Source: a phage
Direction: 5' to 3' (one strand)
Sequence record: PX068456.1
DNA: 64,000 nucleotides
Shown in pieces: positions 59,917 to 59,980 of this stretch. The notes under the pieces were generated by a model. It did no database searches. It was not told where the DNA came from and was given only the letters and a program-made list of their open reading frames with translations. Within the stretch, counting starts at the first letter, position 1. Each line of letters starts with the position of its first letter. A program made the position numbers and the translations under genes.

Positions 59917-59980
59917 TGGCAGCAAGGTGAGGAATCGAACCCCTTGATCTATGGTTTGGAGCCATATTGAGTACCATACT
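59917..59980 (-). tRNA. atypical tRNA-like gene, anticodon CCA (Trp), apparently lacking a D arm
   Basis: T arm AGGGG-TTCGATT-CCTCA, anticodon arm TATGG-CTCCAAA-CCATA, acceptor 6/7 pairs, only ~64 nt. Confidence 0.35.

Follow-up and report, generated by a model that had tools for sequence, protein, structure and literature searches.

What kind of gene lies at positions 59917-59980 of the phage sequence PX068456.1? The 64,000-nucleotide stretch that was analysed, here called the window, comes from a phi92-like Escherichia phage whose tRNA array lies on the minus strand; over the 601 nt from 59700 to 60300 it shares 99.8% identity with Escherichia phage BME3, and phi92 (Justusliebigvirus, Stephanstirmvirinae) is also close. 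ARAGORN recognizes 16 minus-strand tRNA genes between 59836 and 62712 and Rfam recognizes 14, and neither ARAGORN in its default mode nor Rfam at its gathering threshold makes a call at 59917-59980. Read on the minus strand from 59980 to 59917, this segment is AGTATGG TACTCAA TATGG CTCCAAA CCATA GATCA AGGGG TTCGATT CCTCA CCTTGCT G CCA. A preliminary description had taken it for a tRNA-like gene with a Trp anticodon, about 64 nt long and without a D-arm, either decayed or minimal, and likely to escape standard tools. The CCA anticodon loop, the TTCGATT T-loop, the 3' acceptor strand and the encoded GCCA are indeed all present, TATGG-CTCCAAA-CCATA is a perfect hairpin on the minus strand, and the tools do miss the gene. 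The flagged parts are thus real and tRNA-like, but the limits of the feature had been drawn wrongly and its nature misinterpreted: the segment belongs to an 83-nt non-canonical phage tRNA-Trp gene that runs from 59999 to 59917 on the minus strand.

Annotation of a tRNA-Trp is absent from phi92 and BME3, both in the public records and in the accessible text of PMC12210895, which credits phi92-like phages with 16 tRNAs and with none for Trp or Arg. The accessible portion of the Sf14 paper does not state which amino acid is missing from its tRNA set. Locus tags skip at the Trp slot in two records, PHI92_t016 between t017 and t015 (L042, phi92 FR775895.2, 54325-54468) and SARAHDANIELLE_94 between 93 and 95 (L003, Hafnia phage SarahDanielle), and these gaps suggest that a prediction was once made there and later dropped. 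On the opposite strand, an 82-codon open reading frame (59699-59947, plus strand) overlaps both tRNA-Ile and the Trp gene. It is annotated as a hypothetical protein in several records, such as AMO3598, J-01, 92CQ and Citrobacter Tr1, and is probably a spurious call over tRNA genes.

The extent of the gene can be read from conservation among relatives. Conservation of the block exceeds 97% in about 55 phi92-like phages and is 75-81% in Klebsiella, Citrobacter and Hafnia phages, where the match extends some 20 nt past 59980, to 60001. Homology to Salmonella phage UAB_1 ends at 60001, 2 nt upstream of A1, beside an inserted HNH endonuclease gene, while in the Klebsiella, Citrobacter and Hafnia copies, and in locus L006, the block begins 1-6 nt after the preceding tRNA. 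With conservation continuing to 59999-60001, the proposed length of about 64 nt gives way to one of 83 nt. The inserted gene in UAB_1 (L004, 494-890) encodes an HNH homing endonuclease and lies directly upstream of the Trp gene, an arrangement also found in Escherichia phage SD2; in both phages the insertion stands in place of the spacer and upstream tRNAs of phi92.

Pattern scans of viral, metagenome and genome collections recovered many unrelated copies of the element. Homologues from cultured phages, from viral and metagenomic contigs, and from two MAG contigs number 25 and, with the window copy, form an extended set of 26 distinct sequences; alignment A2 is an ungapped MAFFT alignment of 19 distinct sequences. 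The search patterns fixed the anticodon loop, the T-loop and the GG of the hairpin loop, and the invariance of these three elements is therefore partly circular. The fold that emerges consists of an acceptor stem (1-8/72-79), a long-range helix designated helix X (10-12/52-54), a hairpin designated H1 (18-23/27-32), an anticodon stem (34-38/46-50) and a T-stem (57-60/68-71). Table 1 places its parts on the window.

Table 1. Window coordinates of the Trp gene, of its parts, and of a second non-canonical tRNA gene in the same array.
Feature	Positions	Strand	Basis or remark
Whole gene, 83-nt tRNA-Trp(CCA)	59917-59999	-	Model R1 96.0 bits, E 9e-28; conservation limits; register scan; A1 = 59999, CCA end = 59917
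Acceptor 5' strand, nt 1-8 (AGCCGGGU)	59992-59999	-	About 92% of cells paired with nt 72-79; 7 of 8 pairs changed on both sides; RNAalifold
A9, unpaired	59991	-	Invariant column in A2; outside every search pattern
Helix X 5' strand, nt 10-12 (GAU)	59988-59990	-	Pairs with nt 52-54 in 98.7% of cells, 26 sequences
Single-stranded A/U-rich linker, nt 13-17 (UUAAA)	59983-59987	-	UUWAA in most members
D-type hairpin H1, nt 18-32, loop UGG at 59974-59976	59968-59982	-	All 6 pairs changed on both sides
Anticodon arm, nt 34-50 (UAUGG CUCCAAA CCAUA), anticodon CCA at 59957-59959	59950-59966	-	Stem 97-99% paired; 5 of 5 pairs covary
Helix X 3' strand, nt 52-54 (AUC)	59946-59948	-	Within the would-be variable loop; pairs with nt 10-12
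T arm, nt 57-71, stem GGGG/CCUC, loop UUCGAUU	59929-59943	-	4-bp stem 97-98% paired
Acceptor 3' strand, nt 72-79 (ACCUUGCU)	59921-59928	-	Covariation; RNAalifold
Discriminator G (59920) and encoded CCA (59917-59919)	59917-59920	-	G (column 80) in 19 of 19
Second non-canonical tRNA, anticodon UCU (Arg AGA) at 62316-62318	62258-62339	-	Rfam 40 bits, D-arm deleted; separate family

In A2, 94.9% of cells at the proposed pairs are paired and 21 of the 26 pairs show changes on both sides, a result that holds on the extended set. None of 500 shuffles reaches any of the measures, although such counts are not probabilities because the sequences are related by descent, and sliding the 3' partners by 1-3 columns leaves 42-47% of cells paired. 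RNAalifold, working from the alignment alone, recovers the acceptor (8 bp, open at position 4), the hairpin with its 6 bp, the anticodon stem and a T-stem of 4 bp. Minimum free energy folding of the single sequence gives the same helices, with an energy no better than that of shuffles (z = 0.35); thermodynamic stability is uninformative as evidence for the fold. Pair 4-76 of the acceptor is recurrently mismatched, in 11 of 26 sequences, and appears in the window copy as C4 opposite U76.

The acceptor and T arms divide as eight pairs plus four, the 8-bp acceptor being stacked on the 4-bp T-stem so that the usual 12-bp arm is preserved. Pair 8-72 is UA, UG, CG or AU in 18 of 19 sequences and covaries, whereas 56-72, which would be the fifth pair of the T-stem, fails to form in 17 of 19, and a conventional 7/5 arm was therefore rejected. 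The T arm once called canonical keeps its TTCGATT loop, but not, in those 17 homologues, its fifth stem pair.

Helix X encloses both the D-type hairpin and the anticodon arm. Its middle pair is CG in nine, GC in six, UA in six and AU in five of the 26 sequences, with zero mismatches, and at this pair two close relatives, L003 and L008, are set apart by a clean double change (GTT/AAC against GCT/AGC). Extension of the helix to 9-55 or 13-51 was rejected by eye, as A9 and A55 are invariant A residues and 13-51 is mainly U-U.

Hairpin H1 combines a 6-bp stem with a 3-nt loop; the stem comprises 19-23/27-31 in the window phage, and pair 18-32 is formed in most relatives. An insertion of 5-8 nt separates H1 from A9, and the GG of its loop precedes the anticodon loop by 12 nt, which is the spacing of G18/G19 in the canonical tRNA-Trp of L014, a sequence matched by the same pattern. 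These sequence relationships lead us to view H1 as the D-arm in a new setting. The gene had been called D-armless, and the normal D-arm is in fact missing from its normal place, but a covarying 6-bp hairpin of D type with an NGG loop is present. UUWAA was discarded as an obligatory linker motif, since a linker-free pattern recovered members with UCAAA, UAAU, UAA and AA.

The resulting RNA departs from the canonical layout of a 7-bp acceptor, a 5-bp T-stem and a D-stem (10-13:22-25) that follows the acceptor by two nt, and its score of 22.9 bits against Rfam tRNA model RF00005 lies below the gathering threshold of 29. Features of a functional type of tRNA are present, namely the 12-bp acceptor/T arm (8 + 4), a UUCGA T-loop, a 7-nt anticodon loop with U33, and GCCA, the two loops having been set by the search patterns. 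The window copy, like most members, encodes GCCA; of the 19 A2 sequences, 14 encode the 3' CCA, and five, all metagenomic or viral-contig members, lack it. From the covariation we regard a non-cloverleaf secondary structure for the 83-nt RNA as well established, with hardly any room for doubt, and across many distant phages the structure of the Trp gene is strongly selected.

A family covariance model, R1, gives members 67.7-96.4 bits; no ordinary tRNA in about 575 kb of tRNA-rich loci, canonical tRNA-Trp included, exceeds 50 bits. ARAGORN calls no member of the family, but calls the canonical tRNA-Trp genes in the same loci normally. Of the Rfam families, searched at gathering and at permissive thresholds, the tRNA model alone matches, with a score below threshold. 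When the anticodon was left free, the search pattern found no copy of the scaffold with an anticodon other than CCA, and returned only ordinary cloverleaf tRNAs besides. By blastn against cultured phages, three divergent members gave one weak match or none, and the Trp gene has zero matches in 5,426 complete E. coli genomes. To judge from these scores and searches, the elements represent a widespread and unannotated family, discrete from ordinary tRNAs, that resides in phage tRNA arrays.

Every scanned member locus contains other tRNA genes by ARAGORN, except L033 (1.7 kb), which has none; large arrays are present in many of these loci. The 23 tRNAs that ARAGORN reports for L006 cover 19 amino acids, with Trp alone missing. 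Arrays that have a canonical tRNA-Trp (L043, L048, L059 and L071) are without the non-canonical element. The two are not strictly exclusive, because L029, the most divergent member, has both; it is the sole locus to do so. There (10574-10994), in a metagenomic array, the canonical tRNA-Trp is followed directly by a tmRNA gene, and the divergent Trp element is also present. Two odd tRNA-like genes with CCA anticodons, uncalled by ARAGORN, occur at L055 87-159, where a UGG-looped hairpin of 6 bp follows directly on a 7-bp acceptor and there is no linker of nt 8-9, and at L044 6192-6262, where helix X and the hairpin are present and the acceptor is truncated. These may be other variants or decayed copies. 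Arrays with a Trp member also include tRNAs with a CTA anticodon (amber suppressor), at L006 9301-9375, L040 4782-4855 and L041 5882-5956. Coverage by open reading frames in L006 gains most with TAG as sense, rising from 0.53 to 0.72, which hints at TAG recoding in this 149-kb phage.

According to PMC9976931, bacterial TrpRS recognizes its tRNA by the anticodon, by discriminator G73 and by the first pair of the acceptor, with minor roles for A1-U72 and G5-C68. The family has G73 in 19 of 19 sequences, A1-U72 in 25 of 26 (the other being G-U) and, by search design, CCA in all; its fifth acceptor pair is G5-U or G5-C in 22 of 26 members. We consider it likely, with a probability of roughly 0.7, that the Trp gene encodes a functional phage tRNA-Trp(CCA) of non-cloverleaf form, missed by both ARAGORN and Rfam. 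The gene would be transcribed within the minus-strand tRNA polycistron, and RNase P would cleave the transcript at A1; most members have U at position -1. The product would adopt an L-like fold in which the GG of the hairpin loop contacts the UUCGA T-loop and helix X stands in for the normal tertiary contacts of the core (8-14, 15-48 and the 9/10/45/46 triples). Host TrpRS would charge the RNA by way of G73, A1-U72 and the CCA anticodon, and the charged RNA would read UGG, supplying the Trp adaptor otherwise missing from these phage tRNA sets. Escape from host tRNA-directed nucleases, or altered decoding, is a possible benefit of the remodelled body.

If the RNA is charged and used, then RNase P, TrpRS, EF-Tu and the ribosome of E. 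coli naturally accept a tRNA whose core has been rebuilt. This would extend the structural limits known for tRNA, and the scaffold would be a natural one for orthogonal tRNA design. Phage tRNA inventories would be systematically incomplete, as in the published count of 16 for phi92-like phages. The system is tractable because phi92, BME3 and relatives in the BASEL collection grow on E. coli K-12.

Other explanations must be weighed against a functional tRNA-Trp. The best of them, though unlikely, makes the element a tRNA-like RNA that acts outside translation, as a decoy for a tRNA-targeting nuclease or for TrpRS, or as a processing or regulatory element of the polycistron. The non-standard fold would suit such a role, as would the canonical tRNA-Trp carried alongside the element in L029, and phage tRNAs have reportedly been linked to evasion of tRNA-targeting defences. 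However, the family retains the full set of TrpRS determinants together with the 12-bp acceptor/T arm, the T-loop, the GG and an anticodon loop of tRNA-Trp type, and the element supplies the sole missing amino acid in near-complete arrays.

Slightly less probable again is a reading in which the remodelled hinge allows this tRNA-Trp(CCA) to read UGA as well as UGG, whether as a Hirsh-type suppressor, for programmed readthrough, or in a way that disturbs host termination. Hinge mutations in tRNA-Trp(CCA) (A9C and G24A; residues 9-12, 23-26, 44 and 45) bring about UGA reading with the anticodon unchanged, as described in PMC13092985. The family rebuilds exactly this region, and we therefore looked for TGA recoding. 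TGA ends just 8 of 76 long open reading frames in the window, but such scarcity fits a G+C content of 38%. Across the window and 19 other loci, treating TGA as sense raises coverage by open reading frames no more than treating TAG or TAA so. In-frame extensions after TGA stops are ordinary, with a median of 13.5 codons against 10-12 after TAA or TAG, a comparison to which low-level readthrough is invisible. Moreover A9, mutation of which gives readthrough, is invariant in the family. Genome-wide reassignment of TGA is excluded, and modest UGA readthrough by the Trp gene appears improbable. The rebuilt region being the hinge that governs UGA misreading by tRNA-Trp, the family amounts to a natural experiment.

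The tRNA-Trp reading also implies a particular register, and here two further alternatives arise. We scanned all possible 5' partners of the 3' acceptor strand in the 19 distinct sequences and found a sole peak at start 1: the strand beginning at 59999 is 91.7% paired, against 62.4% for AGTATGG and 54.1% for the register preferred by relaxed ARAGORN. In the window copy alone the strands from 59999 and AGTATGG tie at six of seven pairs, so that the choice can be resolved only by comparative data. We give scarcely any credence to a minimal D-armless tRNA of about 64 nt at 59917-59980, or to a decayed pseudogene of one. In its favour, AGTATGG does pair with CCTTGCT at six of seven positions in the window, the Rfam tRNA model aligns in the same register (by reducing 15 D-arm positions to 4 nt), and ARAGORN in mitochondrial mode (-mt) calls a 64-nt form. 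But the register scan rejects this register, and with it the short connector envisaged between the acceptor and anticodon stems; the 19 nt upstream of 59980 are conserved and covarying; and the supposed 5' acceptor strand is the 5' half plus loop of the conserved hairpin, which Citrobacter phage Tr1 keeps, by fully compensatory changes, while destroying that acceptor. Decay is rejected because 21 covarying pairs would not survive it across phages of different subfamilies and environments. The preliminary description had reckoned with a standard cloverleaf in another register; covariance analysis does place the gene in another register, starting at 59999, but the fold there is not a standard cloverleaf. 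That an ordinary cloverleaf tRNA-Trp in some further register was simply overlooked is equally hard to credit: relaxed ARAGORN (-ps) reports a 78-nt tRNA-Trp at 59994-59917, but this form has a D-stem of two pairs, is inconsistent with the mitochondrial-mode form and fails the register scan as that one does, the Rfam tRNA score is low, and genuine canonical phage tRNA-Trp genes are called by ARAGORN and stay at or below 50 bits with the family model.

Among known tRNAs, the 8/4 arm has been described for Ser, His, Cys and Sec but not for Trp, with some examples in phage tRNA clusters (Mukai et al. 2017, PMC5389517, accessible text). The Trp gene has the 8-bp acceptor and 4-bp T-stem that define (8/4) tRNAs, and shares with these and with allo-tRNAs a 12-bp acceptor/T arm built as 8 + 4 rather than 7 + 5, as well as the occurrence of some in phage clusters (PMC5389517). 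It differs from (8/4) tRNAs in its short variable region of 6 nt and its Trp determinants, and also in helix X, since no helix between nt 10-12 and the variable loop is reported in the accessible portions of PMC5389517 and PMC7609411. Nor does it qualify as an allo-tRNA, with three of the 6 nt of its variable region in helix X and with determinants for Trp, not of Ser/Leu type. The accessible part of the review on non-canonical tRNAs (PMC7609411) mentions neither phages nor a Trp case. In the literature covered, which takes in few subscription journals, we came across neither an 8/4 tRNA-Trp nor helix X, nor any account of the Trp family; the non-cloverleaf family is apparently undescribed, though an older report may exist.

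The Trp gene shares the CUCCAAA anticodon loop, A1-U72, G73 and A9 with the tRNA-Trp of E. coli and its variants Hirsh (G24A) and A9C, and the changes in these variants fall in the same hinge (PMC13092985). The two variants are point mutants of a cloverleaf, whereas the Trp gene has its entire D and variable core remodelled and shows no signal of UGA recoding. Bacterial tRNA-Sec resembles the Trp gene in that its acceptor stem is extended and its D-stem, of 6 bp, closes a very small loop. It differs in its 8/5 arm (13 bp), long variable arm and UCA anticodon, and the Rfam tRNA-Sec model has no match at the Trp gene. D-armless mitochondrial tRNAs, such as animal mt tRNA-Ser(AGY), for which contacts between the connector and the variable region have been proposed, likewise depart from the cloverleaf on the D side. 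The Trp gene, in contrast, keeps a D-type hairpin, is longer than a normal tRNA, is encoded by a phage and would serve in bacterial translation.

A second odd gene of the array, whose existence had been noted along with the first, is the UCU-anticodon gene of Table 1, where the Rfam alignment covers 62261-62339. It is not called by ARAGORN. Relative to the tRNA model it has a 20-nt insertion in the variable region, which reaches 23 nt. In 26 distinct sequences of its family, nt 11-13 pair with nt 40-42 of the variable region in 100% of cells, with compensatory changes at two of the three pairs, and an invariant 12-mer containing GG, UAAUUGGAGUAU, lies 3' of this long-range helix. Members occur in 259 phage records from several subfamilies, among them phi92-like, FelixO1-like, jumbo 121Q/PBECO4, Mydovirus and Streptomyces phages; in public records they mostly go unannotated or are labelled tRNA-OTHER or tRNA-Leu. 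As in the Trp gene, a helix formed with the variable region nests the anticodon arm, ARAGORN misses the gene, and the two are found in the same phage arrays. In contrast to the Trp gene, the UCU gene has a 7/5 arm, no 5' D-hairpin, the GG-containing 12-mer and a much wider spread. The long-range helices of the two genes point to one principle: the variable region takes the 5' D-stem strand as its partner, and the helix so formed encloses the anticodon arm. The broader proposition is that phages carry translationally active non-cloverleaf tRNAs in at least two families of this kind, Trp(CCA) and UCU, which have been mislabelled or missed and whose altered body may aid escape from defence or change decoding; we hold it to be evenly balanced.

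Elsewhere in the array, the ARAGORN tRNAs Ser-TGA (62105-62194) and two Met-CAT (60152-60227 and 62637-62712), all on the minus strand, score below the Rfam tRNA gathering score. Against the tRNA-Sec model the Ser-TGA gene scores a sub-threshold 35 bits; in phi92 it carries a pseudogene flag, and that phage also has two features labelled 'hypothetical tRNA'. Upstream of the UCU tRNA, and ending 12 nt from it, is a near-consensus sigma-70 promoter sequence (62351-62379, minus strand; TTGACA, 17 nt, TG-TATAGT; 11 of 12 matches). Together with similar sites at 62210-62239 and 60901-60930, it suggests that the array is split into several transcription units.
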